Shown here: positions 36,409 to 63,660 of the stretch, piece after piece
Layout: each line of letters opens with the position of its first letter
Numbering within the stretch: the first letter of the stretch is position 1
Assembly: GCA_963667665.2 (NCBI GenBank)
Contig: OY763927.2
Location: 1,696,001 to 1,760,000 of the forward strand
Length of the DNA stretch: 64,000 nucleotides
Source: Nitrosopumilus sp.
GTDB taxonomy: Archaea > Thermoproteota > Nitrososphaeria > Nitrososphaerales > Nitrosopumilaceae
Direction: 5' to 3'
The notes under the pieces: model-generated
Told to the model about the DNA's origin: nothing
Seen by the model: the letters and a program-made list of their open reading frames with translations, nothing else
The model's database searches: none
Made by a program: the position numbers and the translations under genes

Positions 36409-37377
36409 ATGAAATTTCAAATTTTATTTTCTGCATTGTTTGTTCTTTTACTTGTAAATACTCCTAATTCCTTTTCAGAACTTGAATTATCTACTAACAG
36501 TAAGGTTTACGCTCCTTCACATAGTTTACAAATCTATGGAACTGGATTACCTGAAGAAAATTTGATCATACGACTTTTTGCTCCGGATGAAACGATTGCA
36601 AAATTTGATCAAATCACTACCCAATTAGATGGTTCTTTTAATTACAATGTATTATTTTGGCCAGAACCATCAACAAATTTTCCATATGGAACATACACAG
36701 TTGAGGTAATTAGTACAGAACAAAATGGAATTTCTAAAAAAATAGATGTAAAGTTTACATCAACTACAAATTTAATTGATGTACCTGTTGAAAGACATGT
36801 AAACACATTGGTCTTTGCTCCTGAAACTGCTGCGATAAACCAATCATTTCGAGTTTTTGTGCAAACAACTAGTGATGGTCTTTTAGTTGGAAATGAACCT
36901 ACAGAATTACTAAAAGCTACCCATGTGCATTTACCATCTGGTCTTTCTGTTTCATTATCTAATGAATTTAATACACTACATCAAGGATTGTATTTTGTTG
37001 ATTATACTGCAAGAGAAGAAGGAACACATGTCTTTCATGTTGTTGCTTTTAGTCAAGGAACAACATCTCATGGATCTGCTGCAACAAATATTCTAAGTCA
37101 AGACCTTGGAGGAATTTCTGATCAAATAATTAAACTAAACTCAATTCTAGATGAGACCTCAGGTGAGCTTGATAATCTAAAATCTGAAATTAAAGGATTT
37201 GATATTACTCTAGAGCATGCAAGTAGTCAAATTGATCAAAATATTGGAGATATTTCTGATTCTGTAAAATTCATCAGTGAAGCTTCCTCTCAACTTAATG
37301 CATTGATGTTGCCAATCATTGCATCTATTGGACTAATTGTTGCCTTACAAATTACAATTCTTGCACGAAGAAGATAG
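36409..37377 (+). CDS. Secreted protein with beta domains, coiled coil and C-terminal TM anchor (SlaB-like architecture)
   Basis: Signal peptide; beta-rich region; heptad region ISDQIIKLNSILDE...; TM LMLPIIASIGLIVALQITIL followed by RRR. Confidence 0.7.
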   Translation: MKFQILFSALFVLLLVNTPNSFSELELSTNSKVYAPSHSLQIYGTGLPEENLIIRLFAPDETIAKFDQITTQLDGSFNYNVLFWPEPSTNFPYGTYTVEVISTEQNGISKKIDVKFTSTTNLIDVPVERHVNTLVFAPETAAINQSFRVFVQTTSDGLLVGNEPTELLKATHVHLPSGLSVSLSNEFNTLHQGLYFVDYTAREEGTHVFHVVAFSQGTTSHGSAATNILSQDLGGISDQIIKLNSILDETSGELDNLKSEIKGFDITLEHASSQIDQNIGDISDSVKFISEASSQLNALMLPIIASIGLIVALQITILARRR

Positions 37378-37408
37378 TTATAATAATGCTACAAAAGAAA
37401 AATTACTG

Positions 37409-40400: not shown

Positions 40401-41215
40401 TACAAACTGGAGTCTATCAAGGATTTCTAACTTTTGAAGGAGAAAAACATTTGGTAAATGCTCCGGTATCTTTTGTAATAAAACAATTAGTTGATCAAAA
40501 TGATTCTACTGTAATTATTAATGGTATACAAAGTGATGATGTACTTTATGGTAATGGATACATCAAAGGAGCATTTGATATGGTTAATCGTTACATGGCA
40601 GGAGATTGGAGACAATATTATTTTGATATCCAAGATGAATCAATTAATTCAGCAGCGATTGAGCTTTCATGGATTACTGATGATACTAATCTAGCAGTCT
40701 TTGTAATGGATCCATCAGGGCAAATAGTTCAAACAAATGTTCCATCTGGAGTATTTGGTCACTTTCTAAAATGGCCTTCACTTGATTGGTTGGGTAATTC
40801 TGTCTTTAGTCAAGGCGGTGGATTCTTTCCTGTAAAAAATAAAGATGATACATCTACTGTTCTTTATGTTCCAATTAACCAGACTGGTACATACACTCTT
40901 TTGACACACTCTACATTGTTTGGAGGAAACTCTACAACCGAACCTATTACACTTGCAGTAAAATTTTCAAACATTTCATCTAAAATCAAACAGGTAGAAA
41001 CAGAGTTTGAATCAAATGATTCTATTTTAGAAAATTATTATAATACAATCTCTAAAACAGAAACTTCATCTGATGATTTTGATCAAATAAATAATTCTGA
41101 TTCATCTTTTAGTCTTGGAATTGTTATTGGAATAATTATTGGAGCTACGATCGCTGCTGTCTTCATATTCGTAATTAGACTAAAACATGAAGAAAAATTA
41201 AACAAGGTTTATTAG
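37409..41215 (+). CDS. Large membrane-anchored S8 (subtilisin-like) serine peptidase
   Basis: Triad IAIIDTG / GHGTSSA / GGTSMAAP; SAGNSG; signal peptide from the ATG at 37409; C-terminal TM helix. Confidence 0.92.
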   Translation: MPKVAIFFSIILLSSAATNSYAFIPGDMVFEESIPKQIEFNSDIIQIDSNFFTENNFKRYLIFGTNSQNSDFLKNNSLYGLHSDSGFFYVTILSENSASSLITQGYNVIEDFQLDFHSSDDLNDASRIAQISRSDIAQKNYGVTGNGTTIAIIDTGVDFSNLDIQHSLARDEQNHPIMLDPDGQGIILTNATFFAFIDDNEIIRNYSKPIPSHMTSSAYVTKQGVFLDVSQGGKGSEIPIYNSFFPQLGSSIIFNGTLDTDMKIGDDNRNFIKSKSGVYHLGVIYQGATQGPLARIQVVPVLVVDSFIPGVYDTIIPDMSTSWEDYTRFELKVGEKPDYDFDFTDEKPIVLGSGNEFLVYDSNNDGKNDFSAGTIGAQVLDVYGVMQNKTAEIDDTLNAINGTLLPALDPDGEFFGLMTDFVGHGTSSAASITSRGIETYDIYNNTEKFTITGVAPGAKIIPVKALWFGDTVYGWLWSAGFDNDKHDWKFSGKTRVDIISNSWGVSAFPSFQASPGMDILSLILSILVTPHSLDDDYPGVTIVSSAGNSGHGYGTIGLPNASPFGISVGATTNNVFVGYGPFKDQPRFGNTISHYNDVVDFSSRGPSSIGDPKPDLMSIGAHGFTPSNVLKIKKDSKDESFSLFGGTSMAAPIVSGSAAILMEGMRNQSQDIDPFTIKNILMSTAIDLKNDPFTQGSGLVDVSSALDYVNGKDGLFIVHNDASYQNIKKILDPAIDKVNSTAIGFEKFQLPSNSIPMTSWFAGQLLPGERSSATFTIVNPSDNEITINVMPKKLSLITKNEFDGTTTVRQQDPILNKSGAYIPNYVKLSDVKQHSTLDEFFDEEDPIPDDSSLMILDVNFPFDSFMNDTSDVYADDIKISSLYIYDWLDNNNDTKISSDELSLVNRAGSWGTVQELRVTDPNEKFEGTPLVGIYPVPTRYSYWSGDTKMNSTSMDYTLSASYYQKEKWSVIWPQSQTVIVPPKDVATIDVTLIAPTDLQTGVYQGFLTFEGEKHLVNAPVSFVIKQLVDQNDSTVIINGIQSDDVLYGNGYIKGAFDMVNRYMAGDWRQYYFDIQDESINSAAIELSWITDDTNLAVFVMDPSGQIVQTNVPSGVFGHFLKWPSLDWLGNSVFSQGGGFFPVKNKDDTSTVLYVPINQTGTYTLLTHSTLFGGNSTTEPITLAVKFSNISSKIKQVETEFESNDSILENYYNTISKTETSSDDFDQINNSDSSFSLGIVIGIIIGATIAAVFIFVIRLKHEEKLNKVY

Positions 41216-44257: not shown

Positions 44258-44332
44258 CGGGCCCAAAGGGCTTCGATCCCTTGACTTTTGGATTAGAAGT
44301 CCAACACGCTATCCATGCTGCGTCATAGGCCC
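44258..44332 (-). tRNA. tRNA-Arg(TCT)
   Basis: Reverse complement reads GGGCCTATGACGCAGCATGGATAGCGTGTTGGACTTCTAATCCAAAAGTCAAGGGATCGAAGCCCTTTGGGCCCG; anticodon arm TTGGA-CTTCTAA-TCCAA. Confidence 0.93.
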
Positions 44333-49771: not shown

Positions 49772-50968
49772 TTGACTATATTGCAAATTGGTTTACTAGG
49801 TAAAGCAAATGTTGGAAAATCAACATTTTTCTCAGCTGCTACTGAAACCCCTGTCGCATCAGGTAATTTTCCTTTTACAACAATTGAACCAAATGTAGGT
49901 GTGGCTTATGTTAAAGCAGATTGTGCTTGCAAACATTTTGGAATTCAACATGAAAATGAATTATGTGTTAATGGCACTCGGTTTATTCCAGTTAAACTCA
50001 TTGACATTGCAGGATTGGTTCCTGGTGCACATGAAGGAAAGGGATTAGGAAATCAATTTCTTGATGATGCAAGACAAGCTGAAGTTTTGATTCATGTCGT
50101 TGACATTGCTGGTAGTACTGATATTCAAGGACAACCAGTCCCAGTTGGGACACATGATCCTTTAGAAGATGTTGTATTTGTTCAGGATGAATTTGATCAA
50201 TGGTTTGCAGATATTCTAAAAAGAGAATGGGATAAGATTACCCGTGAAATAGATCAGAAAAGAGCAAAACTTACTGATGGCATTGCAAAACGATTCTCTG
50301 GATTAGGCATTAAAGAATATCAAGTACATGTAGTGTTACAAAAACTAGGACTTGTTTCAAGAAATCCAAAAGAGTGGAAAGATTCTGATATCGAAACTTT
50401 TGTTAAAGAATTAAGGAAAAATACTAAACCAATGATCATTGCTGCAAATAAAGCAGATCTATGTCATGATCTTGATATTCTTAAAAAAATTTCAGATTCT
50501 GTAATTCCTTGTAGTGCAGAAACTGAGTTACTTTTACGAAAAGCAGCAAAAGCAGGAATTGTAGATTATTCTTCTGGAGATGAAGGTTTTAAAATAATTG
50601 AAGGAAAAGAAATTCTTCCTCCACAACAAAAAGCGCTAGATTTAGTAAAGTCTGTATTTTCTAAAATTACATCTACTGGAATTCAAAAAATTCTAAATAC
50701 TGCTGTTTTTGATTCTCTAAACTTTATTGTTGTATACCCTGTAGAAGACGAAACTAAACTAACCAACAAAGATGGCATTATTTTACCTGATACAAAATTG
50801 CTTCCACAAGATTCTACTGCAAAAGACTTGGCAGAATTAATTCACGCAGATATTGCTAAGGGATTCTTATATGCGATTGACTGTAAAACCAAACAAAGAA
50901 TCAGTGGTGATCAAAAACTAAAAAATGGCGATGTGATTAAAATTGTATTCACGTTAAGTAGGGGATAG
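49772..50968 (+). CDS. ychF: OBG-family YchF-like ATPase/GTPase with TGS domain
   Basis: GKANVGKST, FPFTTIEPN, DIAGLVPGAHEGKGLGNQFL, ANKAD. Confidence 0.9.
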   Translation: MTILQIGLLGKANVGKSTFFSAATETPVASGNFPFTTIEPNVGVAYVKADCACKHFGIQHENELCVNGTRFIPVKLIDIAGLVPGAHEGKGLGNQFLDDARQAEVLIHVVDIAGSTDIQGQPVPVGTHDPLEDVVFVQDEFDQWFADILKREWDKITREIDQKRAKLTDGIAKRFSGLGIKEYQVHVVLQKLGLVSRNPKEWKDSDIETFVKELRKNTKPMIIAANKADLCHDLDILKKISDSVIPCSAETELLLRKAAKAGIVDYSSGDEGFKIIEGKEILPPQQKALDLVKSVFSKITSTGIQKILNTAVFDSLNFIVVYPVEDETKLTNKDGIILPDTKLLPQDSTAKDLAELIHADIAKGFLYAIDCKTKQRISGDQKLKNGDVIKIVFTLSRG

Positions 50969-50969
50969 A

Positions 50970-51953
50970 ATGCTAGGTTTAGGAATTGAAAGCACAGCAC
51001 ACACATTTTCTTGTGCAATAATTGAAAAAAAGGGAAAGCAAGGAAAAATTCTTTCTGATGTACGAAAAATTTATCAACCTGCAGATGGAGAAGGAATTCA
51101 TCCAAGAGAAGCGTCTCGTCATCATATTGAGAATAGTTCTTCAGTATTGTTTGAATGCCTTAAAGAGGCAAATATGACAATCCAAGATCTTGATCTTATT
51201 TCTTATGCTGCAGGCCCGGGATTAGGTCCATGTTTACGAGTTGGTGCAGTTGTTGCAAGATCTTTAGCCTCATTTTATAAAATTCCAATTTATCCTGTCA
51301 ATCACGCAATTGGTCACATTGAATTAGGAAAACTTCTTACAGGTGCAACTAATCCTTTGGTACTTTTAGTATCTGGAGGACATACTATGCTTTTGGCATT
51401 TCTCAATAAACAGTGGAGAGTTTTTGGTGAAACTTTGGATATTACATTGGGTCAATTACTTGATCAATTTGGGAGATCTATTGGATTTGCTTCACCATGT
51501 GGAAAAAATATAGAAGAATTAGCATCATCATCATCTAACTATGTTACATTACCATATTCAGTAAAAGGAAATGATGTTTCTTTCTCGGGTTTATTATCTG
51601 CTACAAAATCTATTGCAAAGAAAAATAAAATTGATGCATGTTATTCACTTCAAGAAACTGCTTTTGCAATGATTAGTGAGGTTGTAGAACGTGCTTTGTC
51701 ATTCACAGGTAAAAAAGAATTTTTGATAGTAGGTGGTGTTGCAGCTAACAAAAGATTATCTGAAATGCTTCATGATGTATGTAAACGACATGGATCAAAG
51801 TTTTTTGCAATTCCGATACAATATGCTGGAGATTGTGGAAGTCAAATATGTTGGACTGGACTTTTAGAATCCCAAGTCAAGCAAGGTGCTTTACTAAAAG
51901 ATACTATGGTCACACAATCTTGGAGATTAGATTCAGTTAAAATAGATTATTGA
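50970..51953 (+). CDS. kae1: KEOPS N6-threonylcarbamoyltransferase Kae1
   Basis: GIESTAHT, GIHPREA, GPGLGPCL, VNHAIGHIE, VSGGHT, GETLD, GGVAAN. Confidence 0.95.
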   Translation: MLGLGIESTAHTFSCAIIEKKGKQGKILSDVRKIYQPADGEGIHPREASRHHIENSSSVLFECLKEANMTIQDLDLISYAAGPGLGPCLRVGAVVARSLASFYKIPIYPVNHAIGHIELGKLLTGATNPLVLLVSGGHTMLLAFLNKQWRVFGETLDITLGQLLDQFGRSIGFASPCGKNIEELASSSSNYVTLPYSVKGNDVSFSGLLSATKSIAKKNKIDACYSLQETAFAMISEVVERALSFTGKKEFLIVGGVAANKRLSEMLHDVCKRHGSKFFAIPIQYAGDCGSQICWTGLLESQVKQGALLKDTMVTQSWRLDSVKIDY

Positions 51954-52264
51954 TTTTTAATTGCCTCATCGATACTTTTGAGCCAACCTTTTGTGCTAAA
52001 AACACCAAACTTGTAAGTTTGTTCATCGTTTTCTATCTTTGCAGTAAAACATACTTTCTTAATTAGTAATCCTTCTTTCCATGTTTTAGTCACATTATCT
52101 AATGAAATATCCAGTATAGTATCACCCATGTGTTTAGAAAAATCCATCAATCTTGATCTTGTTTTATCAAATGCCAATCTCTTGTTAGTTAATGTCAGAA
52201 TTCCTGAACCTAAATTATCTTCACTGCAATCTTCTTGTTTTATTTTTTTTTCTCCCTCTTCCAT
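51947..52264 (-). CDS. Hypothetical protein with a PH/GRAM-like fold
   Basis: GILTLTNKRLAF motif and a terminal W...I helix. Confidence 0.6.
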   Translation of the reverse strand: MEEGEKKIKQEDCSEDNLGSGILTLTNKRLAFDKTRSRLMDFSKHMGDTILDISLDNVTKTWKEGLLIKKVCFTAKIENDEQTYKFGVFSTKGWLKSIDEAIKNQ

Positions 52265-52286
52265 GATTAATTTTTATTGAATCCCT

Positions 52287-52922
52287 TTGGATATAATGTT
52301 AATGAAATTAAGAAAAAAAGGAGCAGAAGCTGACATTTATCAATCTAAATGGCAAAATTCTAAAGCAATTCTTAAAATTAGAAAAATAAAAAATTATCGT
52401 AACACTTCACTTGATTTAAAAATACGTAAACAAAGAACAATAAAAGAATCTCAAATATTATCTCAAGTAAAGTCATTTGGAATTCCAACGCCTCTTGTTT
52501 ACTTTGTAAACTTGGAAAAAGCCTTGATTGTAATGCAAGAAATTCCTGGAAAACCAATTCATGATTTACCTGAATTAAAAATTGTTGAATTATCCAAAGA
52601 AATTGGAAAGTTAGTTGGAATGCTTCACAAGAATGGAGTTATGCATGGGGATTTGACAACATCCAACTTCATTTTATTCAAAAATACTGTGTTTGTCATT
52701 GATTTTGGATTGTCTCAAAATACAATAAAACCTGAAGATCATGCAGTTGATCTAAGATTAATCAAAGAAATTCTTAACAGTGCTCATGCAAAAATCATGG
52801 ATGCATCTTGGAAAAATTTCCTAAGTGGTTACAAATCTGTAGTTGGAAATGCAAATTATGTTAAAATCACAAAACTAGTTTCAGAAATAGAAAGTCGTGG
52901 TAGATATGCAACAGTCGTTTGA
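52287..52922 (+). CDS. bud32: KEOPS kinase Bud32
   Basis: KGAEADIY, K.R..K.YR, HGDLTTSN, IDFGLS, AVDL, RGRY. Confidence 0.95.
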   Translation: MDIMLMKLRKKGAEADIYQSKWQNSKAILKIRKIKNYRNTSLDLKIRKQRTIKESQILSQVKSFGIPTPLVYFVNLEKALIVMQEIPGKPIHDLPELKIVELSKEIGKLVGMLHKNGVMHGDLTTSNFILFKNTVFVIDFGLSQNTIKPEDHAVDLRLIKEILNSAHAKIMDASWKNFLSGYKSVVGNANYVKITKLVSEIESRGRYATVV

Positions 52923-53454
52923 TCTATTTTTTGTATCCTCAAATAGGCACAAATACCAAGAGGCAAAAAAGATTCTGGATTCCTTTGGAATAAAACTGGG
53001 TTTTTTCAAATTTTATTTAGAAGAGATTCAATCAAGTTCTCTTAAAGAAATTGCATCAAAAAAAGCAAAAGATGCATTTTCTAAATGTAAAAAACCTGTA
53101 ATAATTGAAGATGATGGTTTGTTTATTGATTCACTTTGTGGATTTCCAGGTCCATATTCATCATATGTTTTCAAAACAATCGGCAACAAAGGAATTCTTG
53201 AACTCTTAAAAAATAAAAGAAAGGCAAAGTTTGTTTCTATTATTAGTTATTGTGATAAAAAAATTCTACAATCTTTTGATGCAAAACTTGATGGAACAAT
53301 ATCACATTCACAAAAAGGAAAAGGTTGGGGATATGATCCGATCTTTATTCCAAAAAATACCAGAAAAACATTTGCTGAAATGAATAACAAAAATGAACTA
53401 TCACATAGGTACAAAGCACTGAAAAAATTTTCTAATTGGTATTTGCATAAGTAG
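52897..53454 (+). CDS. rdgB: Non-canonical purine NTP pyrophosphatase (RdgB/HAM1)
   Basis: SSNRHK, EEIQ, EDDGL, GFPGPYS, GWGYDPIF, SHRYKA. Confidence 0.93.
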   Translation: MVDMQQSFDLFFVSSNRHKYQEAKKILDSFGIKLGFFKFYLEEIQSSSLKEIASKKAKDAFSKCKKPVIIEDDGLFIDSLCGFPGPYSSYVFKTIGNKGILELLKNKRKAKFVSIISYCDKKILQSFDAKLDGTISHSQKGKGWGYDPIFIPKNTRKTFAEMNNKNELSHRYKALKKFSNWYLHK

Positions 53455-54460
53455 GAATATAACGTTCAATTGTTCGTTCGTTATTCTGTAAGACTGAAAT
53501 TCTTGAAACAAAACTTTCATCCATTACTGAAAATATCTTACTTTGTTTTGCAACCTGTTCACTAAAATTTTTTATTTCCTCCATTTCTAACATATTAGAA
53601 TGCTCTAATCTATTGGTTGAACGGCCAATATGCATGTATGATTTTATTTCAATAAAGTGTGGACTAGCTTTTCTAACCATTTCTGCAAAAACTGGAATCA
53701 TTTCTTTAATGTCATTATAATCTCTAATCAGAGTAATTCTTAGAACTGTTCTTGTTTTCAAATGCTTTAACATTGAAAGAGTTCTATTCCATCTTTCCCA
53801 TGAATCATCATATTTTGGTTGGTTTATTTTCTTAAATGATTCATAGTCTGCAGCATTTGTTGATAAGTACAATTGTGTTGGTAATGCATCTTCATCTTGT
53901 AACCTTTGTATCATATCTGGTTCTTGTCCATTGGTTACAAGAAAAGTTGACTTTGTTGCTTTAAGTGAGTGTAGATATTTGATTAGTTCTGGTAATTTTG
54001 GATACATTGTTGGTTCACCAGAAAGTGAAATCGAATAATGACTAGGTAATAATGATTCATCTAATCTTTGTTTATCATTTCTTGAATCTCCATAATATCC
54101 ATTAATCAGTTCTTTTCTTTCAATCATCAATTTTGTCATGATCTCTTCAGGTTCTGCAACTTGTTTTGGATCCATTTTTAATGAATCATAAAATTCCATT
54201 GGTCTCCAACAATACACACAGCGATTCTCACAATGCATTCCAGCTGGGGAAAACTCCATACATCCATGAGTTGAAATTCCATAAAACTTGTGTTTATAGC
54301 AATTTCCTTCATGTTTGAACGATTTTTTTGTCCAATGACACAATGCAACTGTAGCATGATCAGCAATTCCGTACTTTGCTTTTTTTAATTGCTTAGCTAT
54401 TGCAGGTTTTATCTGAATTAATCGATCTTCTTCTTCAACTGTTTCAGCAGAGCAACTCAT
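53432..54460 (-). CDS. taw1: 4-demethylwyosine synthase (radical SAM, TYW1)
   Basis: CHWTK, CYKHKFYGI, CENRCVYCWR, SLSGEPT, LVTNG, KSYMHIG. Confidence 0.94.
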   Translation of the reverse strand: MSCSAETVEEEDRLIQIKPAIAKQLKKAKYGIADHATVALCHWTKKSFKHEGNCYKHKFYGISTHGCMEFSPAGMHCENRCVYCWRPMEFYDSLKMDPKQVAEPEEIMTKLMIERKELINGYYGDSRNDKQRLDESLLPSHYSISLSGEPTMYPKLPELIKYLHSLKATKSTFLVTNGQEPDMIQRLQDEDALPTQLYLSTNAADYESFKKINQPKYDDSWERWNRTLSMLKHLKTRTVLRITLIRDYNDIKEMIPVFAEMVRKASPHFIEIKSYMHIGRSTNRLEHSNMLEMEEIKNFSEQVAKQSKIFSVMDESFVSRISVLQNNERTIERYIPTYANTN

Positions 54461-54597
54461 GAATTCTATTCTAGTTTTTGTTTACTTAAATTGATCGAGT
54501 TTTTGTCCATCATGGAAATTTTTCTTAACACTTATTACAATTTTGAGTCGATTCTAGAGTGAGGTTTATTTACTGGATCCCCAAGGTAATTTTAGCA

Positions 54598-56961
54598 TTG
54601 AAAAGTATACATAAGTTATCATTCCTATTTTTGCTATTTGCTACATTGACTAGCATGCCTATATCCTATACTTTTGCTGCTGAGGACTTGGATAATGATG
54701 GTGTTGAAGATTCTATGGATTCATGTCCAAATTTGCAAGAAGATTATGAAGGTACTATTGATGGTTGTCCATCAAACTTTGTTCCATGGTATGATGAAGA
54801 CTATGATGGAATACAAGATCATCTAGATCAATGTCCAAATGTAAGGGAAACCTACAATCTATTCCAAGATGAAGATGGTTGTCCTGATGTATCTATTGAA
54901 GGTGGTGCAGGTGGATTACCTGATTCTGATGGTGATGGTTTTTCTGATATTAGAGATCTATGTCCAAATCAACCAGAAACATTCAATGGTGTTTTAGATA
55001 GAGACGGTTGTCCTGATGATGTTGGTTCAGGTGACAGAGACTTGGATGGAGTTCCAGATGCTGTTGATGAATGTCCGTTAAGTGCAGAAACTTACAACAG
55101 ATTCCAAGACGATGACGGTTGTCCTGATTTTATTAGTGATTCTACTTTTACTGACAATGAAAGTATTCCATATACTACATTAGATTCTTCATTTGATGAT
55201 CAAGATGGTGATGGAATAGCAGACCAATTTGATATCTGTCCTAATCAACCAGAAACTTACAATAGATTTGCTGATTATGATGGTTGTCCAGATTCAATTC
55301 AATCATTCGCCGATACATTAAATGATGTTGATGGTGATAGAATCATGGATGCAGATGATGCATGTCCTTTAGAACCTGAAAGATACAACGGTTTCCAAGA
55401 CGATGACGGTTGTCCAGACATTCCTCCTTATTCTAGTGATACTGATTCAGACCTTGATGGAGTTCCAAATAGTATTGATCAATGTCCTTTAGTTGCAGAG
55501 TCTTACAACATGTTCCAAGATGCTGATGGCTGTCCTGATTTTATAGGAGCTAATAAAGAAATCCCAGATACTGATGGTGATGGAATTAATGATTATTCAG
55601 ATTTGTGTCCAACCCAACCAGAAACATTCAATGGAGTTTTTGATAGAGATGGTTGCCCAGATACTCTTAGCACTTCACAAGACAGAGACTTAGATGGTGT
55701 TCCTGATAATCTAGATCAATGCCCAATTGCTAAAGAAACTTACAATAATTTCCAAGACGATGACGGTTGTCCTGATAGTATATCTGGATTAATACCATTT
55801 GACTTTGATGGTGATAATATTTCAGATTTGAAAGATAAATGTCCACTAGAACCTGAAGTGTATAATGGATATCAAGACCAAGATGGTTGTCCTGATGAAT
55901 TGGTTTCTGATTCTGACGGTGATGGAGTTAGAGATTCATTAGACAAATGTCCTACAACTGCAGAAACTTGGAATAGATATCAAGATGCTGACGGTTGTCC
56001 TGACAATCCAACAGAATTCGATTCAGACTTTGATGGTATTTTAGATTCAGTTGATCAATGTCCACTTGACAGAGAACGATACAACGGTTTCCAAGATGAT
56101 GACGGTTGTCCAGATTATCCTGATTTTGTAACTAGCATGGATTCAGACTTTGATGGAATCATGGATGCAGATGATGCATGTCCTTTAGTTCCAGAATCTT
56201 ATAACATGTTCCAAGATGAAGATGGCTGTCCCGACTTTGTAGGTGAGAATAAAGAAGTTCCTGATACTGACAATGATGGAATTAATGATTACAAAGATCA
56301 TTGTCCAAATCAAGCTGAAACATATAATGGAATTCTTGATTTAGACGGTTGTCCAGATGAGTATATCTTAAAGAATGATCGTGACTTGGATGGATTACCA
56401 GATGCTATTGATGCATGTCCACTTGCTCAAGAAACTTACAATAGATATCAAGATGATGACGGTTGTCCAGATACTGTATCAGAATCATTTGTAATTGACT
56501 CTGATAATGATGGCATTAATGATGTCTATGATGATTGTCCTCTAGTTGCTGAAAACTATAACGGATTCCAAGATGATGATGGTTGTCCGGATATTAATGA
56601 TACTCAACCTGATTCTGATGGTGATGGTGTTCCAGATGTGATGGATGTGTGTCCTGAACAAATGGAAACTTTGAACGGATTTGCTGATTATGATGGTTGT
56701 CCAGATGTTATGCCAACTGGAAATATTACAAATGATAGTGATCAAGATGGCATAAATGATGAAATTGATTTATGTCCAAATGAAAAAGAGTCTTGGAACA
56801 AGTACAATGACAAAGACGGTTGTCCAGATATTGCTCCAGAACAATCAAGATACAAACATGATGCTGATTTAGACAATATTATCAATGACTATGACTTGTG
56901 TCCTCTAGAACCTGAGGATTATGATGGTGATAGAGATACCGACGGCTGTCCTGACCCATAA
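54598..56961 (+). CDS. Secreted thrombospondin type 3-like repeat protein 1 (19 modules)
   Basis: Signal peptide; tandem DxDxDGxxDxxDxCP-xxxExYNxFxDxDGCPD modules; the TTG at 54598 is preferred because a TATA-like TTTATTTA lies at 54565. Confidence 0.88.
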   Translation: MKSIHKLSFLFLLFATLTSMPISYTFAAEDLDNDGVEDSMDSCPNLQEDYEGTIDGCPSNFVPWYDEDYDGIQDHLDQCPNVRETYNLFQDEDGCPDVSIEGGAGGLPDSDGDGFSDIRDLCPNQPETFNGVLDRDGCPDDVGSGDRDLDGVPDAVDECPLSAETYNRFQDDDGCPDFISDSTFTDNESIPYTTLDSSFDDQDGDGIADQFDICPNQPETYNRFADYDGCPDSIQSFADTLNDVDGDRIMDADDACPLEPERYNGFQDDDGCPDIPPYSSDTDSDLDGVPNSIDQCPLVAESYNMFQDADGCPDFIGANKEIPDTDGDGINDYSDLCPTQPETFNGVFDRDGCPDTLSTSQDRDLDGVPDNLDQCPIAKETYNNFQDDDGCPDSISGLIPFDFDGDNISDLKDKCPLEPEVYNGYQDQDGCPDELVSDSDGDGVRDSLDKCPTTAETWNRYQDADGCPDNPTEFDSDFDGILDSVDQCPLDRERYNGFQDDDGCPDYPDFVTSMDSDFDGIMDADDACPLVPESYNMFQDEDGCPDFVGENKEVPDTDNDGINDYKDHCPNQAETYNGILDLDGCPDEYILKNDRDLDGLPDAIDACPLAQETYNRYQDDDGCPDTVSESFVIDSDNDGINDVYDDCPLVAENYNGFQDDDGCPDINDTQPDSDGDGVPDVMDVCPEQMETLNGFADYDGCPDVMPTGNITNDSDQDGINDEIDLCPNEKESWNKYNDKDGCPDIAPEQSRYKHDADLDNIINDYDLCPLEPEDYDGDRDTDGCPDP

Positions 56962-56973
56962 TAGTATCGTAAA

Positions 56974-59900
56974 ATGAAAAAACAATTTCTTTTAGGATTT
57001 TTGCTTTTACTTACCTCCACCATTGGTATGTTTTCAGGTGGTGTTTATGCCGCCGAACCAATTGATTCTGATGGTGATGGAGTTCCTGATAATCTAGATC
57101 AATGTCCTAATCTTCTTGAAGATTATGATCCACAATATGGCAACAACATAGACGGTTGTCCTGCAGACTTTGTTCCATGGTATGATGCTGACTTTGATGG
57201 AATACAAGATCATCTAGATAATTGTCCAACTGTAAGGGAAACCTACAATCTATTCCAAGATACTGATGGATGTCCTGATTTATCACCTGTTGATGCAAAA
57301 GGCATTGCAGATTCTGATGGTGATAATATTCACGATTTTCTAGATTTATGTCCAAATCAACCAGAGACATTCAATGGTATTGATGACAAAGACGGTTGTC
57401 CTGATGATGTTTCTGCTTTAATGGATAGTGATCAAGATGGAATTTCTGATACAATGGATGCATGCCCACTAGAACCTGAAACCTACAACTTTTATCAAGA
57501 CCAAGACGGTTGTCCTGATTCTGTTGATACAATAGATTTGACATATACTTTTCCAGACACTGATGGTGATGGAATTGATGATAGATGGGATCAATGTATT
57601 GATGAACCTGAAAACTATAATGGTTATTTAGATTGGGATGGATGTTCAGATATACCTGGAACTACTTCTCTTGTAGTACCAGATACTGATTATGATGGAA
57701 TCCCAGATGATATAGATGATTGTCCATTAGACCGCGAAAATTATAATAGATTCCAAGACGATGACGGATGTCCTGATAGTATTGATTATGAAATAGTTGG
57801 TGATGCTGATGGTGACGGCATTTTAGATCCAAACGATTCTTGTCCTTTCAGTTCTGAAACTTACAACAAATTCCAAGATGAAGATGGATGTCCAGATTAT
57901 GTAGCAGACAACAAAATAACTGCTGACACTGACGGTGATGGCATTCCAGATGTTCTAGATTTGTGTCCAAATCAACCAGAGACATTTAATGGATTCCTAG
58001 ATGGCGATGGTTGTCCTGATAGTTTTGATTCTAAACTTGATTCTGATATGGATGGTATTGTAGATGTCTCTGATGCATGTCCACTAGAACCTGAAACTTA
58101 CAATCTTTTCTTAGATAGTGATGGCTGTCCTGATTCTGTTGATTCTATTGTTTCATCTTACATCTTTGCAGACACTGATGGTGATGGAATTGATGATAGA
58201 TGGGATCAATGTATTGATGAACCTGAAAATTATAATGATTATCTAGATAACGATGGTTGCCCAGATGTTAAGGGTACAACTGCAGGTGATATACTTGATG
58301 CTGATTATGATGGAATCCAAGATCATTTAGATCAATGTCCAACATTAGCTGAAAGATACAACGGATTCCAAGACGATGACGGATGTCCTGATAGTATTGA
58401 TTATCAAACAATTGGTGATTTTGATGGTGATGGTATCTATGATAATCTAGATCATTGTCCAACTGCTAAAGAGACTTACAACTTTTACTTAGACGAAGAT
58501 GGTTGTCCTGATTATGTAGCAGCCAACAAAATAACTGCTGACACTGACGGTGATGGCATTCCAGATGTTCTAGATTTGTGTCCAAATCAACCAGAGACAT
58601 TTAATGGATTCCTAGATGGCGATGGTTGTCCTGATAGTTTTGATTCTAAACTTGATTCTGATATGGATGGTATTGTAGATGTCTCTGATGCATGTCCACT
58701 AGAACCTGAAACTTACAATCTTTTCTTAGATAGTGATGGCTGTCCTGATTCTGTTGATTCTATTGTTTCATCTTACATCTTTGCAGACACTGATGGTGAT
58801 GGAATTGATGATAGATGGGATCAATGTATTGATGAACCTGAAAATTATAATGATTATCAAGATACTGATGGTTGTCCAGATGTTAAGGGTACAACTGCAG
58901 GTGATATACTTGATGCTGATTATGATGGAATCCCAGATGATATAGATGATTGTCCATTAGACCGCGAAAATTATAATAGATTCCAAGACGATGACGGATG
59001 TCCTGATAGTATTGATTATGAAATAGTTGGTGATGCTGATGGTGACGGCATTTTAGATCCAAACGATTCTTGTCCTTTCAGTTCTGAAACTTACAACAAA
59101 TTCCAAGATGAAGATGGATGTCCAGATTATGTAGCAGACAACAAAATAACTGCTGACACTGACGGTGATGGCATTCCAGATGTTCTAGATTTGTGTCCAA
59201 ATCAACCAGAGACATTTAATGGATTCCTAGATGGCGATGGTTGTCCTGATAGTTTTGATTCTAAACTTGATTCTGATATGGATGGTATTGTAGATGTCTC
59301 TGATGCATGTCCACTAGAACCTGAAACTTACAATCTTTTCTTAGATAGTGATGGCTGTCCTGATTCTGTTGATTCTATTGTTTCATCTTACATCTTTGCA
59401 GACACTGATGGTGATGGAATTGATGATAGATGGGATCAATGTATTGATGAACCTGAAAACTATAATGATTATCTAGATAACGATGGTTGCCCAGATGTTA
59501 AGGGTACAACTGCAGGTGATATACTTGATGCTGATTATGATGGAATCCAAGATCATTTAGATCAATGTCCAACATTAGCTGAAAGATACAACGGATTCCA
59601 AGACGATGACGGATGTCCTGATAGTATTGATTATCAAACAATTGGTGATGCTGACGGTGACGGCATTTTAGATCCAAACGATTCTTGTCCTTTCAGTTCT
59701 GAAACTTACAACAAATTCCAAGATGAAGACGGTTGTCCTGATTATGTAGCAGCCAACAAAATAACTGCTGACACTGACGGTGATGGCATTCCAGATGTTC
59801 TAGATTTGTGTCCAAATCAACCAGAGACATTTAATGGATTCCTAGATGGTGATGGTTGTCCTGATAGTTTTGATTCTAAACTTGATTCTGATATGGATGG

Positions 59901-60375
59901 TATTGTAGATGTCTCTGATGCATGTCCACTAGAACCTGAAACTTACAACATGTTCCAAGATGAAGACGGTTGTCCTGATTCTGTTGATTCTATTGTTTCA
60001 TCTTACATCTTTGCAGACACTGATGGTGATGGAATTGATGATAGATGGGATCAATGTATTGATGAACCTGAAAATTATAATGATTATCAAGATACTGATG
60101 GTTGTCCAGATATACCTGGTGCAGAATCAACTACTCCTACATATGCAGATTCTGACGGTGATGGATATCCAGATGTTACTGACTCTTGTCCAACAAACCC
60201 AGAAACTTGGAATAAATATCTAGACTCTGATGGTTGTCCGGATACTGCTCCAGAACAAAAGAGATTTGCCCATGATGATGACCTAGATGGTATCATTAAT
60301 GATGTAGATTTGTGTCCTCTTGATCCTGAAGATTATGATGGAGATAGAGATACCGATGGCTGTCCAGATCCATAA
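56974..60375 (+). CDS. Secreted thrombospondin type 3-like repeat protein 2 (27 modules)
   Basis: Signal peptide ending VYA; 27 Asp/Cys modules; no TM anchor. Confidence 0.88.
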   Translation: MKKQFLLGFLLLLTSTIGMFSGGVYAAEPIDSDGDGVPDNLDQCPNLLEDYDPQYGNNIDGCPADFVPWYDADFDGIQDHLDNCPTVRETYNLFQDTDGCPDLSPVDAKGIADSDGDNIHDFLDLCPNQPETFNGIDDKDGCPDDVSALMDSDQDGISDTMDACPLEPETYNFYQDQDGCPDSVDTIDLTYTFPDTDGDGIDDRWDQCIDEPENYNGYLDWDGCSDIPGTTSLVVPDTDYDGIPDDIDDCPLDRENYNRFQDDDGCPDSIDYEIVGDADGDGILDPNDSCPFSSETYNKFQDEDGCPDYVADNKITADTDGDGIPDVLDLCPNQPETFNGFLDGDGCPDSFDSKLDSDMDGIVDVSDACPLEPETYNLFLDSDGCPDSVDSIVSSYIFADTDGDGIDDRWDQCIDEPENYNDYLDNDGCPDVKGTTAGDILDADYDGIQDHLDQCPTLAERYNGFQDDDGCPDSIDYQTIGDFDGDGIYDNLDHCPTAKETYNFYLDEDGCPDYVAANKITADTDGDGIPDVLDLCPNQPETFNGFLDGDGCPDSFDSKLDSDMDGIVDVSDACPLEPETYNLFLDSDGCPDSVDSIVSSYIFADTDGDGIDDRWDQCIDEPENYNDYQDTDGCPDVKGTTAGDILDADYDGIPDDIDDCPLDRENYNRFQDDDGCPDSIDYEIVGDADGDGILDPNDSCPFSSETYNKFQDEDGCPDYVADNKITADTDGDGIPDVLDLCPNQPETFNGFLDGDGCPDSFDSKLDSDMDGIVDVSDACPLEPETYNLFLDSDGCPDSVDSIVSSYIFADTDGDGIDDRWDQCIDEPENYNDYLDNDGCPDVKGTTAGDILDADYDGIQDHLDQCPTLAERYNGFQDDDGCPDSIDYQTIGDADGDGILDPNDSCPFSSETYNKFQDEDGCPDYVAANKITADTDGDGIPDVLDLCPNQPETFNGFLDGDGCPDSFDSKLDSDMDGIVDVSDACPLEPETYNMFQDEDGCPDSVDSIVSSYIFADTDGDGIDDRWDQCIDEPENYNDYQDTDGCPDIPGAESTTPTYADSDGDGYPDVTDSCPTNPETWNKYLDSDGCPDTAPEQKRFAHDDDLDGIINDVDLCPLDPEDYDGDRDTDGCPDP
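57688..60111 (+). repeat. Intragenic tandem repeat, about 4 x 615 bp (205 aa, five modules per unit)
   Basis: ATAACTGCTGACACTGACGGTGATGGCATTCC recurs at 57916, 58531, 59146 and 59761 (exact 615-bp spacing). Confidence 0.95.
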
Positions 60376-60461
60376 TCAATCTTTTTTTGACTTTAAAATT
60401 ATAGAAGAATCTATTTAACGTGAAACTTAATAAATACTTGATAATAGCGAAGTCAGAGAGA

Positions 60462-62636
60462 ATGAAAAAACAGTATCTTTTAGGATTTTTGCTTTTACTT
60501 ACCTCCACCATTGGTATGTTCTCAGGTGGTGTTTATGCCGCTGAACCAATTGATTCTGATGGTGATGGAGTACCCGATTCTCTTGATTTTTGTCCTCATC
60601 TTCTTGAAGATTATGATCCACAATATGGTAATGACATAGATGGTTGTCCTGCAGACTTTGTTCCATGGTATGATGCTGACTTTGATGGAATACAAGATCA
60701 TCTAGATAATTGTCCAACTGTAAGGGAAACCTACAATCTATTCCAAGATACTGATGGTTGTCCTGATTTATCACCTGTTGATGCAAAAGGTATTGCAGAT
60801 TCTGATGGTGATGGATATCCTGATTACATGGACTTGTGTCCAAATCAACCAGAAACATTCAATGGTGTTGATGACAAAGACGGTTGTCCTGATGATGTCT
60901 CTTCTTTAATGGATAGTGATCAAGATGGAATTTCTGATACAATGGATGCATGCCCACTAGAACCTGAAACTTACAACATGTTCCAAGATGAAGACGGTTG
61001 TCCTGATTCTGTTGATACAATAGATTCAACATATACTTTCCCAGATTCTGATGGTGATGGAATTGATGATAGATGGGATCAATGTATTGATGAACCTGAA
61101 AACTATAATGGTTATCTAGATTGGGATGGATGTTCAGATGTACCTGGTGCAACATCTGATTCTTTAATTGATTCTGATTATGATGACATTCCTGATATTG
61201 TTGATGCTTGTCCATTAGTTCGTGAAAATTATAACAATTTCCAAGATGAAGACGGCTGTCCTGATACTATATCTTATGATTCATTTACAGGTGATGCTGA
61301 CGGTGATGGAATTTTAAATCATTTTGATTCATGTCCTTATGCTAAAGAAACTTATAACAAATTCCAAGACGGTGACGGTTGCCCTGATTCTATATTTGAC
61401 AATAAATTAACTGCTGATACTGATGGTGATAATATTCCAGATATCCTAGATTCATGTCCAAATCAACCAGAGACATTTAATGGATTCCAAGACGCAGATG
61501 GCTGTCCAGACAGTCTTGATTCTATACTTGATTCTGACATGGATGGTGTTGTAGATACAATGGATGCATGTCCACTAGAACCTGAAACTTACAACTTTTT
61601 CAAAGACGGTGACGGTTGTCCAGATTCATCTGGCTCTATTGTTTCATCTTACATCTTTCCTGATGTTGACAGTGATGGTATAGATGATAGGTGGGATGCA
61701 TGTATTGATGAACCTGAAAACTATAATGATTATCTAGATAACGATGGTTGTCCTGATGTTCCAGGTATATCAAAATCTGCATTACCTGATTCTGATTATG
61801 ATGGAATTCCAGATCATTTAGACCAATGTCCAACATTAGCTGAAAGATACAACGGATTCCAAGACGATGACGGTTGTCCAGATTCCTTATCTTACGATTC
61901 CTTTGTAGATGCTGACTTTGATGGAGTTACTGATAATGTTGATGAATGTCCTTATGCTAAAGAAACTTACAATAGATTCCAAGATGAAGACGGTTGTCCA
62001 GATTCTGTAGCCGATAACAAACTAATTGCTGATACTGATGGTGATAATATTCCAGATATCCTAGATTTATGTCCAAATCAACCAGAAACATTCAACGGTG
62101 TTGATGATAAAGACGGTTGCCCTGATAGATTTGTATTTACGCTTGATTCTGATATGGATGGCATTGTAGATATCTCTGATGCATGTCCACTAGAACCTGA
62201 AACTTACAACTTTTACCAAGATGAAGACGGTTGTCCAGATTCATCCACTTCTATTGTTTCATCTTACATCTTTGCAGATGTTGACGGTGATGGCATAGAT
62301 GATAGATGGGATGCATGTCTTGATGAGCAAGAGAATTTTAATGGATACTTGGATTGGGATGGCTGCCCAGATGTGCTTGCAGCAGTGTCTACATCACCCA
62401 TAAAACTTGATTCTGATGGTGATGGTTACTATGATGCAGTTGATTCTTGTCCAACAAGCCCAGAAACTTGGAACAAATACAATGATCACGACGGCTGCCC
62501 AGATACTGCTCCAGAACAACAGAGATTTGTACATGATGATGACCTAGATGGAATCATTAATGATGTAGATTTGTGTCCTCTTGATCCTGAAGATTATGAT
62601 GGAGATAGAGACGATGACGGCTGCCCTGATAACTAG
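60462..62636 (+). CDS. Secreted thrombospondin type 3-like repeat protein 3 (17 modules), paralog of protein 2
   Basis: ATG at 60462 (MKKQYLLG) with a TATA-like element at 60427-60436; N- and C-termini nearly identical to protein 2. Confidence 0.88.
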   Translation: MKKQYLLGFLLLLTSTIGMFSGGVYAAEPIDSDGDGVPDSLDFCPHLLEDYDPQYGNDIDGCPADFVPWYDADFDGIQDHLDNCPTVRETYNLFQDTDGCPDLSPVDAKGIADSDGDGYPDYMDLCPNQPETFNGVDDKDGCPDDVSSLMDSDQDGISDTMDACPLEPETYNMFQDEDGCPDSVDTIDSTYTFPDSDGDGIDDRWDQCIDEPENYNGYLDWDGCSDVPGATSDSLIDSDYDDIPDIVDACPLVRENYNNFQDEDGCPDTISYDSFTGDADGDGILNHFDSCPYAKETYNKFQDGDGCPDSIFDNKLTADTDGDNIPDILDSCPNQPETFNGFQDADGCPDSLDSILDSDMDGVVDTMDACPLEPETYNFFKDGDGCPDSSGSIVSSYIFPDVDSDGIDDRWDACIDEPENYNDYLDNDGCPDVPGISKSALPDSDYDGIPDHLDQCPTLAERYNGFQDDDGCPDSLSYDSFVDADFDGVTDNVDECPYAKETYNRFQDEDGCPDSVADNKLIADTDGDNIPDILDLCPNQPETFNGVDDKDGCPDRFVFTLDSDMDGIVDISDACPLEPETYNFYQDEDGCPDSSTSIVSSYIFADVDGDGIDDRWDACLDEQENFNGYLDWDGCPDVLAAVSTSPIKLDSDGDGYYDAVDSCPTSPETWNKYNDHDGCPDTAPEQQRFVHDDDLDGIINDVDLCPLDPEDYDGDRDDDGCPDN

Positions 62637-62697: not shown

Positions 62698-63660
62698 ATG
62701 CTTCCAAAATTCTCCAGTAGAGCATTTTTAGCTCCAATGGCTGGAGTCAGTGATCCTGCACTTCGTTTACAATGTAAACAAAAGGGAGCTGGTCTTGTTG
62801 TTACTGAATTTACCAACATTCATAGTATTATTGCCAAAGAAAAACAACTCAAAGAAAATACTAAAACAATACAAGAATTTATTGAATATTCTGAAAAAGA
62901 ACGCCCTCTTTCAGTTCAGTTATTTGGATCTGATCTTTTTGCATTAGAAAAAGCTGCAAAAATTGTAGAACCTTATTTTGATATTATTGACTATAACATG
63001 GGATGTCCTGCTCCACATATTACTCAACAAATGGCAGGTGGTGCTCTTTTACAAGAAGTTAATCTAACTCAACAAATATTCAGCACCCTAGTTAACGCTG
63101 TAAAAAAACCTGTAACATTAAAAATTCGTTCAGGTGTAACAAATGCTAGTAAATTTCTCTTTAGGGAAATTGCTGAAATTGCAGAAGATGAAGGAATTCA
63201 GATGATCACTTTTCATCCTAGAACTGTTAGTCAAGGTTATTCTGGTACTGCAGATTGGAAGATGATTAAAGAACTTAAAGAAATATCTGGCATTCCAATT
63301 GTTGGAAATGGTGACATTACAACTCCTGAAGATGCTAAAACTATGATTGAGGAGACTGGATGTGATTATGTGATGATCGGTCGTGGTGCAATGGGAAATC
63401 CATTTTTATTTGAACAGATAAACGATTATCTTAAAACAAACTCTTACAATGAATACTCTTTCAAAGACCGTCTGAATTCATTTTTTGATTATTTACATCT
63501 TACAAATCATTACAAAATCAAATTTGGTAATATCAAGAGTCAAGCAATCAGATTTACAAAAGGTATGCAGGGAGGTTCTAAATTACGTTCAAAAATTACT
63601 GTTTCAAAAAATATTGAAGAACTTGAGAAAATTATGAATAATGCATATACATCATCATAA
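62698..63660 (+). CDS. dus: tRNA-dihydrouridine synthase (DusB-like)
   Basis: LAPMAGVSD, QLFGS, NMGCP, TLKIR, HPRT, GNGDI, VMIGRGAMGNP. Confidence 0.94.
   Translation: MLPKFSSRAFLAPMAGVSDPALRLQCKQKGAGLVVTEFTNIHSIIAKEKQLKENTKTIQEFIEYSEKERPLSVQLFGSDLFALEKAAKIVEPYFDIIDYNMGCPAPHITQQMAGGALLQEVNLTQQIFSTLVNAVKKPVTLKIRSGVTNASKFLFREIAEIAEDEGIQMITFHPRTVSQGYSGTADWKMIKELKEISGIPIVGNGDITTPEDAKTMIEETGCDYVMIGRGAMGNPFLFEQINDYLKTNSYNEYSFKDRLNSFFDYLHLTNHYKIKFGNIKSQAIRFTKGMQGGSKLRSKITVSKNIEELEKIMNNAYTSS

Follow-up and report, generated by a model that had tools for sequence, protein, structure and literature searches.

Three exported, anchorless arrays of thrombospondin type 3 repeats in Nitrosopumilus sp. share an ordered module architecture and vary in length by whole super-repeats

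A 64,000-nucleotide stretch of the genome of Nitrosopumilus sp. (contig OY763927.2, positions 1,696,001 to 1,760,000; hereafter the window) carries three co-oriented plus-strand genes, at 54598-56961, 56974-60375 and 60462-62636, with 19, 27 and 17 modules of the thrombospondin type 3 (TSP3) type. The molecular identity of their products as exported, anchorless arrays made of TSP3 repeats alone is secure. The arrays combine a defined architecture with an export signal, are conserved among relatives, come in quantised lengths and resemble Ca-binding TSP3 repeats. Our favoured interpretation, held with middling confidence, is that Nitrosopumilaceae export them by the Sec route to serve, without enzymatic activity, as structural components of the cell envelope or the extracellular matrix, where they would be loaded with Ca2+ and stapled by disulfides.

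Gene 1 (type 1; 54598..56961, +) encodes a 27-residue signal peptide and 19 modules, the orthologues having 20; gene 2 (type 2/3; 56974..60375, +; start ATG 56974) encodes a 26-residue signal peptide and 27 modules, and gene 3 (type 2/3; 60462..62636, +) a 26-residue signal peptide and 17 modules. The open reading frame listing gives the frames as 54559-56961, 56974-60375 and 60420-62636, all on the plus strand, with GTG starts for genes 1 and 3 that fall within a conserved upstream element; the starts conserved across aligned same-genus sequences are TTG 54598 for gene 1, the coordinate already used in an earlier sequence-only reading of this DNA, and ATG 60462 for gene 3. The mature proteins of genes 1, 2 and 3 have 760, 1107 and 698 residues, masses of about 84, 121 and 77 kDa and net charges of -184, -282 and -172. 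Asp makes up 21-24% of residues, and 194-315 acidic residues stand against 22-33 basic ones, with an isoelectric point (pI) near 4. The array is flanked by a Taw1-type radical-SAM gene at 53432-54460 (minus strand; Pfam Wyosine_form and Radical_SAM) and a Dus gene at 62698-63660 (Pfam). The 1.89 Mb host genome encodes an archaeal AmoA, and every one of its 31 TSP_3 matches lies inside the three-gene locus.

Against a gathering cut-off of 25 bits, Pfam TSP_3 (PF02412) was matched at 113.9, 167.9 and 101.6 bits by the products of genes 1, 2 and 3, and no other Pfam domain was above threshold in the three proteins; there was no OmpA (PF00691) match, and EGF-like, lectin-like C-terminal and oligomerisation domains were likewise not found by Pfam. 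The Sec-type signal peptide of each product is its sole hydrophobic segment (maximum KD19 at most 0.67 past residue 40), and a basic n-region, hydrophobic core and AxA-like site are present in 49/49 orthologues. In none of these 49 does a Cys precede module 1, so there is no lipobox. The chain ends one residue after the last module in the window proteins (0-3 residues overall), with no C-terminal MYXO-CTERM sorting signal, and inspection of hydrophobicity, lipobox and C-termini found no membrane, lipid or sortase-type anchor in the three proteins. The sequence-only reading, which had described a signal peptide plus 19, 27 and 17 TSP3-like modules with no OmpA domain, transmembrane anchor or catalytic domain, is thereby confirmed by splitting at Cys pairs, by Pfam and by the lack of a second hydrophobic segment.

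Among NCBIfam models, the three proteins fell below the curated cut-offs for MtsC (NF047638; 168.9, 198.9 and 123.7 bits, cut-off 350, yet the best NCBIfam match), TraB (NF033763; 79.4-105 bits, cut-off 700) and CglD (NF033765; cut-off 400), and below the cut-off of 250 for the PA1041 anchor (NF053612; 30-59 bits). None of the three had an exact-sequence entry in the protein cluster collection searched, and a search for homologous proteins was dominated by bacterial OmpA-TSP3 proteins (7626 matches among 8000 candidates) and was of little use for orthologues.

Modules were delimited at Cys pairs, and their order was taken from unsupervised average-linkage clustering of the 63 modules into 12 classes. 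Each module spans about 40 residues and holds one Cys pair, with a spacing of 14-18 within the pair and 20-39 between pairs, and the acidic loop DxDxDGxxDxxD followed by Cys is present in all 63, bar a few substitutions. The resulting class strings are I B (CBJFK)x4 CBJ L H for gene 2, I B (CBJFK)x2 CBJ L H for gene 3 and ABCBDEBCBEBBBCBFCGH for gene 1. The clustering thus reproduces the 5n+2 rule previously put forward for proteins 2 (n=5) and 3 (n=3), and the FVPWY junction, the EDY-type first and last modules and the penultimate ETW/ESW-NKY...APEQxRxxH module are all present as that reading had noted. In an alignment-free comparison, the mean identity between modules is highest at lag 5 for proteins with 17, 22 and 27 modules (0.65, 0.63 and 0.81 vs. 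about 0.47) and at lag 6 for those with 20, 26 and 14 (0.55, 0.54 and 0.56 vs. about 0.48). Chance is excluded as the source of this order because it is kept between genera and because the similarity peaks fall at lag 5 or 6.

From the lag-6 periodicity and the 20-module orthologues it follows that gene 1 is a 6n+2 array; as far as the sequences indicate, gene 1 is ancestrally 6n+2 and genes 2 and 3 are 5n+2. The 19 modules of the window copy are explained by an in-frame deletion of about 25 codons from a 20-module form, which, in alignment with the orthologues of L021, L025 and L051, took the core of module 5 with both Cys and left a long module (55129..55293, +) with a 39-residue Cys-to-Cys gap as the remnant of the lost one. 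The proposal that gene 1 was designed as 5+6+6+2 is therefore replaced: 24 relatives have 20 modules and a lag of 6, and the window copy is a deletion form.

The DNA of gene 2 has a basic period of 615 nt, and 300-nt copies lying 1230 nt apart are both 98% identical to one reference copy. Its modules 6-10 are identical to modules 16-20, and modules 11-15 are nearly identical to 21-25. The near-identity of the 1230-nt repeat indicates that gene 2 is a 17-module gene in which a 10-module block was recently duplicated (17 to 27), the two tandem 1230-nt copies of 10 modules each occupying 57652..60111 (+; borders computed from module borders, phase arbitrary). Tandem Repeats Finder found nothing, since the period is longer than 500 nt; the 615-nt and 1230-nt periods came from the repeat search. 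The fixed module order is due largely to descent and to in-register duplication of 615-nt or 1230-nt blocks, and for that reason does not by itself demonstrate a functional grammar.

Loci were fetched from 12 same-genus genomes and 20 genomes of other genera of the family, along with a further 76 loci that partly overlap the same genomes. The usual layout across Nitrosopumilaceae is taw1, genes of 20, 17 and 17 modules, then dus. Both taw1 and dus flank the array in 12/12 same-genus loci and in 10/20 loci of other genera, the remainder of which have dus alone (5/20), taw1 alone (3/20) or neither (2/20). Gene 1 has 20 modules in 24 fetched loci, and 8 type 1 genes with 20 were found in the further 76; its counts of 8, 14, 20 and 26 fit 6n+2, with 19, 24, 25, 15, 10 and 9 as exceptions. 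For type 2/3 genes only lengths of 17, 22 and 27 modules were observed: 17 (n=49) and 22 (n=8) in the first loci besides the 27 of window gene 2, and 45 with 17 and 5 with 22 among the 50 complete genes of the further 76. The third gene of L045 (G140; L045 9365-11608), which has irregular Cys spacing, was left out of these counts. A 27-module gene also occurs in G053 and G078, with the same class string as in the window, and in G062 of another genus, with a nearly identical one.

The exact type 2/3 class string is found in 21/23 same-genus genes (all but L029's third gene and the one, divergent, gene that L024 has) and in 17/34 genes of other genera; the others differ at 1-4 positions, as is expected because the window's own modules served as class references. 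Across the family, then, module order, length classes and taw1-dus flanks are conserved and not random, and the earlier suggestion of a tunable length is borne out in that it varies in whole super-repeat units among the surveyed relatives. The recurrence of the layout across Nitrosopumilaceae shows that the locus is old. A quick maximum-likelihood tree separates genes 2 and 3 over most of the genus into two clades, each with 9 rows. Several other genera show the paralogues of one genome grouping together, a pattern suggestive of gene conversion or of duplication that happened more than once; the window's own genes 2 and 3 agree at 94% over their first 300 nt (repeat family D7).

Several relatives depart from the usual layout. 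In four same-genus loci (L011, L012, L014 and L015, from G020, G022, G018 and G010) there is a second, different TSP3 gene of 494-538 residues, in which a Cys/His-rich domain comes after a few canonical TSP3 repeats. Gene 1 is split into two frames in G193 (L035 9972-12391), the 11-module frame being a piece of it. Extra short genes of 8 modules (L034, L036) or 10 modules (L022 7488-8852) keep both end-module pairs.

TSP_3 matches were found in 22/24 same-genus genomes, the two without being 62% and 78% complete; in the same draw, 1/16 genomes of other genera matched, by a different, canonical TSP3 protein. For the family survey, gene 3 was used as a single query at E 1e-10 or better on 200 sampled genomes of 27 genera, and relatives were found in 113/200 genomes and 20/27 genera. 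The draw of 201 genomes included the unpublished G117, G132 and G133, which enter the tallies only; no sequence of theirs was used. The closest 76 loci are labelled Nitrosopumilus, Nitrosarchaeum, Cenarchaeum or Nitrosopumilaceae, with a few placed at higher rank only and one as Nitrososphaeraceae.

To assess constraint, 50 mature proteins of 17 modules, drawn from several genera, were aligned, as was a second set of 128 pentads. In the first alignment, which has a mean column identity of 66%, Cys pairs are invariant in 16/17 modules and that of the last module is conserved in at least 90%. Most modules also keep, without variation, the Asp residues of the loop, one Glu, one Asn and the DxDG that precedes the second Cys. 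The 128 aligned pentads show the same invariant pattern, with an own signature at each of the five positions. The end modules, singled out as conserved in the sequence-only reading, are indeed more conserved than the internal ones: in non-motif columns, module 2 has an identity of 0.76 and module 17 one of 0.78, vs. 0.46-0.59 for internal modules. When gene 1 was compared with gene 2 in 11 genomes, module 2 was 0.76-0.84 and the last module 0.67-0.79 identical in 9/11, with a best-match mean of about 0.60 for internal modules. The 8-module mini-genes also retain both ends (ABCBFCGH).

This degree of conservation bears on the idea that variable-length surface chains act as a decoy or shield against viruses or predators by masking receptors or soaking up virions. 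The proteins are predicted to be extracellular and their length is polymorphic within the genus (17, 22 and 27 modules), as such a role would have it. Their sequence is conserved rather than diversifying, however, both in the 66% mean column identity across genera and in the end modules, and the locus keeps a fixed synteny among housekeeping genes with no defence or mobile genes adjoining, so that we regard a decoy as highly improbable.

Structure prediction by AlphaFold2 gave a predicted local distance difference test score (pLDDT) of 64.2 and a predicted template modelling score (pTM) of 0.17 for full-length gene 3 with 50 sequences, and a pLDDT of 77.6 and pTM of 0.27 for a pentad with 128 sequences. 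In the models, module cores reach a pLDDT of 70-87, linkers are low, helix and strand are almost nil and there is no fixed overall shape. The TSP3 repeats of an OmpA protein (5wtl) were the sole PDB sequence match (E 1e-4) and also the best Foldseek match to the models (E 1e-12 to 2.5e-14; probability 1.00, but template modelling score 0.14), followed by thrombospondin-1, thrombospondin-2 and COMP (1yo8, 2rhp and 3fby; E 3.5e-9 to 4e-4) and, weakly, by 1ux6 (E 0.06-0.1), an entry whose title speaks of a 'calcium core in the type 3 repeats'. From the homology with entries 5wtl and 1ux6 we infer Ca2+ binding, and the likeness to Ca-binding TSP3 repeats that had been claimed for these proteins is upheld in that their invariant acidic loops and Cys pairs appear to match those of solved Ca-binding repeats. 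A complex prediction between modules 1-2 (residues 1-76) and 16-17 (residues 613-698) of gene 3 with 4 Ca gave a score of 0.00 and a mark of 0.32, without controls, and bears neither way on whether the end modules bind each other. The filament or mesh, and the assembly driven by its caps, that the sequence-only reading put forward are not supported by the present results.

On the favoured interpretation, each module of about 40 residues would be a long-form TSP3 repeat in which Ca2+ is wrapped by the acidic loop (DxDxDGxxDxxD) and a second half-site (E..N...DxDG), the loop being stapled by one intra-module disulfide. In seawater, 17-27 small and rigid beads, loaded with Ca2+ and lacking regular secondary structure, would then be strung along the chain, and its length would shift solely in complete super-repeats of five modules (genes 2 and 3) or six (gene 1) through in-register recombination. 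Lacking an anchor, the proteins could be held at the cell by non-covalent contacts alone, and module 2 and the last module, both strongly conserved, may be the best candidates for such contacts, to each other, to the S-layer or to another envelope component. The proteins would likely serve as a surface matrix that is induced by stress and is cohesive or protective.

It is conceivable that such polyanionic chains (-172 to -282) serve instead as a cation reservoir, buffering or concentrating Ca2+, NH4+ or trace metals at the membrane beside the S-layer. The excess of acidic residues (194-315 vs. 22-33 basic, pI near 4), the invariance of the acidic loops and an acidic 1509-residue S-layer-like protein encoded 20 kb upstream are in keeping with this, and the Nitrosopumilus S-layer is itself negatively charged and concentrates ammonium. 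Yet the invariant geometry, the Cys pairs and the five conserved module types exceed what a charge sink needs, and a cation store seems needless in seawater because Ca2+ is at about 10 mM there. The response reported for proteins of this kind is to peroxide and not to ammonium or metal supply (in the section of PMC6593220 considered below). The reservoir is quite unlikely in our view.

Proteins of the same general kind have been noticed before. In a section focused on features common to three Nitrosopumilus strains, Bayer et al. 2019 (PMC6593220) report two TSP3-like repeat proteins that were 15-40x up under H2O2 relative to catalase or a helper bacterium. The same section mentions small aggregates and a likeness to a myxobacterial thrombospondin-like cluster, and proposes a role in extracellular-matrix remodelling. 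An existing functional description, which the sequence-only reading had allowed for as a possible objection, is thus available in part: that section describes H2O2-responsive, putative extracellular-matrix components, and their correspondence to the present genes is taken up below.

The Cys pairs may be connected with DsbA-like oxidoreductases in some relatives. Two metagenome proteins (P0002 and P0006) combine TSP_3 repeats with DsbA/thioredoxin domains, P0002 having capped modules of this locus type followed by a CxxC-motif domain, and in G184 and G105, of another genus, the distance between gene 1 and a DsbA-like gene is 0.6 and 3.6 kb. In the window genome the best DsbA-like gene is far from the locus. 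The association fits extracytoplasmic oxidation of the Cys pairs and proves nothing more. A different explanation would make the proteins an oxidant sink or disulfide-relay substrate, exported in reduced form so that, within the pseudoperiplasm, H2O2 or oxidising equivalents from DsbA would be absorbed by the 34-54 thiols of each chain. The two Cys per module, the DsbA fusions and neighbourhoods and the 15-40x rise under H2O2 (as given in the cited section of PMC6593220) agree with it; its capacity would, however, be stoichiometric, at 17-27 disulfides per chain with no recycling partner identified, the link to DsbA is equally explained by ordinary folding of disulfide-rich proteins, and conserved Ca loops and end modules would be superfluous, which makes it very unlikely. 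In L041 (2529-4112) and L040 (15958-17190), the place of taw1 beside the locus is taken by a gene for a membrane-anchored, DsbA-like protein that has a CPFC motif and an acidic repeat, TAPETDGAD.

Upstream elements lie about 40 nt ahead of genes 1 and 3. That of gene 1 (54556..54580, +) holds the GTG listed as a start and is conserved in 12/12 same-genus sequences, i.e. in the window and 11 loci, even where the remaining spacer fails to align; that of gene 3 (60420..60449, +) is its paralogue. The pattern GTGARRYTTAWTWA, derived from both, has two sites in the 1.89 Mb genome, ahead of genes 1 and 3, and the element is probably a BRE/TATA-type promoter. A wider regulon was considered and rejected, there being no further match to GTGARRYTTAWTWA in the genome. 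Gene 2 starts 12 nt past the stop of gene 1 and is therefore probably co-transcribed with it, and a T7 run just past the gene 2 stop (60382..60388, +) may be an archaeal terminator; taken together with the elements before genes 1 and 3, this makes gene 1 plus gene 2, and gene 3 alone, the likely transcription units.

Twenty public runs were listed, and four RNA-library runs from two studies, chosen by their match to this locus, were mapped. Contigs in 4/4 of them cover most of gene 1 (up to about 54580-57000), with most pieces at least 99% identical, and are compatible with transcription of gene 1. A higher expression of gene 1 than of the housekeeping genes at about 50.2-53.7 kb, where almost no contigs were found, was discarded as a conclusion, as uncovered parts prove nothing. 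Contigs of both studies (X2 and X4) have a 6-nt insertion after 56615 in gene 1, and in one X4 contig position 56155 is followed by 55340, a step back of 816 nt, either through strain-level repeat variation or as an assembly loop through the repeats.

One of the runs covering gene 1 is labelled as a sponge metatranscriptome and Cenarchaeum-labelled relatives carry the locus, and this might point to released adhesins or bridging proteins that glue cells to particles, to other cells or to a host such as sponge tissue, their length setting the reach. The lack of an anchor would suit such a function, and passages in two papers assign TSP3-repeat genes to adhesion: PMC6461757 does so for other marine archaea, and PMC7265257, with reference to Wang et al. 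2019, for ammonia oxidisers of the deep sea. However, the proteins have no binding domain besides the repeats, the habitat labels rest on a handful of runs, and free-living cultured Nitrosopumilus strains make such proteins too, according to the section cited above (PMC6593220). We therefore consider release as an adhesin unlikely.

The interpretation as a structural envelope or matrix protein has its own difficulties. We infer the Ca2+ loading, the disulfides, the location, the retention through end modules and the matrix role. Rigid-body likeness to 5wtl is weak (VIA Z 3.4; root-mean-square deviation 6.9 over 103 residues), as is expected of a flexible string. The anchorless proteins may simply be released, and the conservation of the end modules may reflect capping of the repeat fold rather than a binding surface. 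An RNA library can contain DNA, and the contigs give no expression level. The orthology of the proteins in the section of Bayer et al. 2019 (PMC6593220) with this locus is only likely, and some relatives have a second, different TSP3 gene. Lastly, the gene 3 query had no match in 7/27 genera (g21, 0/4; g22, 0/11; g24, 0/1; g27, 0/17; g28, 0/2; g35, 0/2; g40, 0/16), so the proteins are not a universal part of the envelope. That this query had no match in genera with the smallest genomes (g21 and g40) weakens the earlier remark that the locus is a large investment for a streamlined oligotroph.

A ruler-like role is conceivable in view of the strict length classes and of the five (or six) non-equivalent module types, whose order is fixed across genera and which form a true super-repeat. 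According to this more specific hypothesis, which we rate as rather improbable, the proteins would act as struts or molecular rulers in a second envelope layer dependent on Ca, the period of the super-repeat matching a periodic partner such as the S-layer lattice. They would span exactly 3, 4 or 5 lattice units (1 to 4 for gene 1) and dock via module 2 and the last module, and the length alleles of 17, 22 and 27 modules might tune envelope spacing or mesh size, limiting H2O2 influx for instance.

Other genes of the window include a candidate S-layer region. At 31227-36297, where the GC content is 0.40-0.44 vs. about 0.32, a 198-residue frame with a signal peptide overlaps the start of the 1509-residue frame, which is acidic, rich in Thr, Ser and Asp, has no Pfam match and lies about 20 kb upstream of the TSP3 locus; the two look like one S-layer-type gene split by a frameshift or an alternative start. 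Adjoining this putative S-layer gene, a 1292-residue S8 subtilase (37337-41215; Peptidase_S8, E 5.8e-33) has a signal peptide and a C-terminal hydrophobic tail, and a 322-residue secreted protein encoded at 36409-37377 ends in a membrane helix. An rRNA in the GC-rich 32-36 kb was rejected, as Rfam gave solely a tRNA (44258-44332, minus strand, 57.7 bits). Upstream of the TSP3 genes, at 49772-53454, a GTPase, Kae1, a 105-residue opposite-strand frame, a Bud32-like kinase and a Ham1-like NTPase were named from their translations, the Pfam check being limited to Taw1 and Dus; this housekeeping block accompanies the locus in most relatives.

Members of the Nitrosopumilaceae rank with the most abundant microbes of the ocean, and their envelope is thought to be relevant to ammonium capture and peroxide sensitivity. 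The locus adds to this a conserved exported protein family whose function is predicted only and whose relatives are reported, in the section of PMC6593220 cited above, to be stress-responsive. It also offers experimental handles in a defined 205-residue unit, two conserved end modules, natural alleles of 17, 22 and 27 modules and a putative locus-specific promoter element.

This is not a new protein family but one of ordinary TSP3-repeat proteins, of a kind already noticed in Nitrosopumilus proteomes. In the literature searched, Bayer et al. 2019 is the only Nitrosopumilus work treating such proteins, and supplements may bear on this; the same literature yielded no account of 5n+2 or 6n+2 super-repeats, conserved end modules, family-wide synteny, recurrent 22- or 27-module alleles or a locus-specific upstream element. 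The section of Bayer et al. 2019 (PMC6593220) shares with the present analysis the genus-level group, the repeat type, the likeness to myxobacterial proteins and the proposed matrix role, while module architecture, super-repeat, end modules, length classes and synteny are described here and not in that section.

The OmpA TSP3 repeats of Capnocytophaga gingivalis (5wtl) resemble the archaeal modules in their DxDGDGxxDxxDxCP loop and intra-repeat Cys pair, and work by Dai and colleagues in 2017 is said to have found that their Ca binding depends on the intra-repeat disulfide. Their repeat is shorter than the archaeal module and lacks the second DxDG half-site, and it is placed between a membrane barrel and an OmpA peptidoglycan-binding domain, whereas the archaeal proteins have neither and carry 17-27 repeats. 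The long-form module CPxxxExxNGxxDxDGCP is shared with MtsC (NF047638), TraB (NF033763) and CglD (NF033765) of Myxococcus, the first of which is named a cell-cell cohesion protein by NCBIfam and is the best match there (123.7-198.9 bits). Unlike these, the archaeal proteins have no MYXO-CTERM, OmpA or lipoprotein anchor, and their host has no outer membrane. In the signature domain of animal thrombospondins and COMP (1ux6, 1yo8, 2rhp and 3fby), type 3 repeats are likewise Ca-wrapped, disulfide-linked and devoid of secondary structure; the archaeal arrays are far longer, differ in Cys pattern and module length, and stand without EGF, lectin-like C-terminal or oligomerisation domains, as strings of the type 3 repeat alone.

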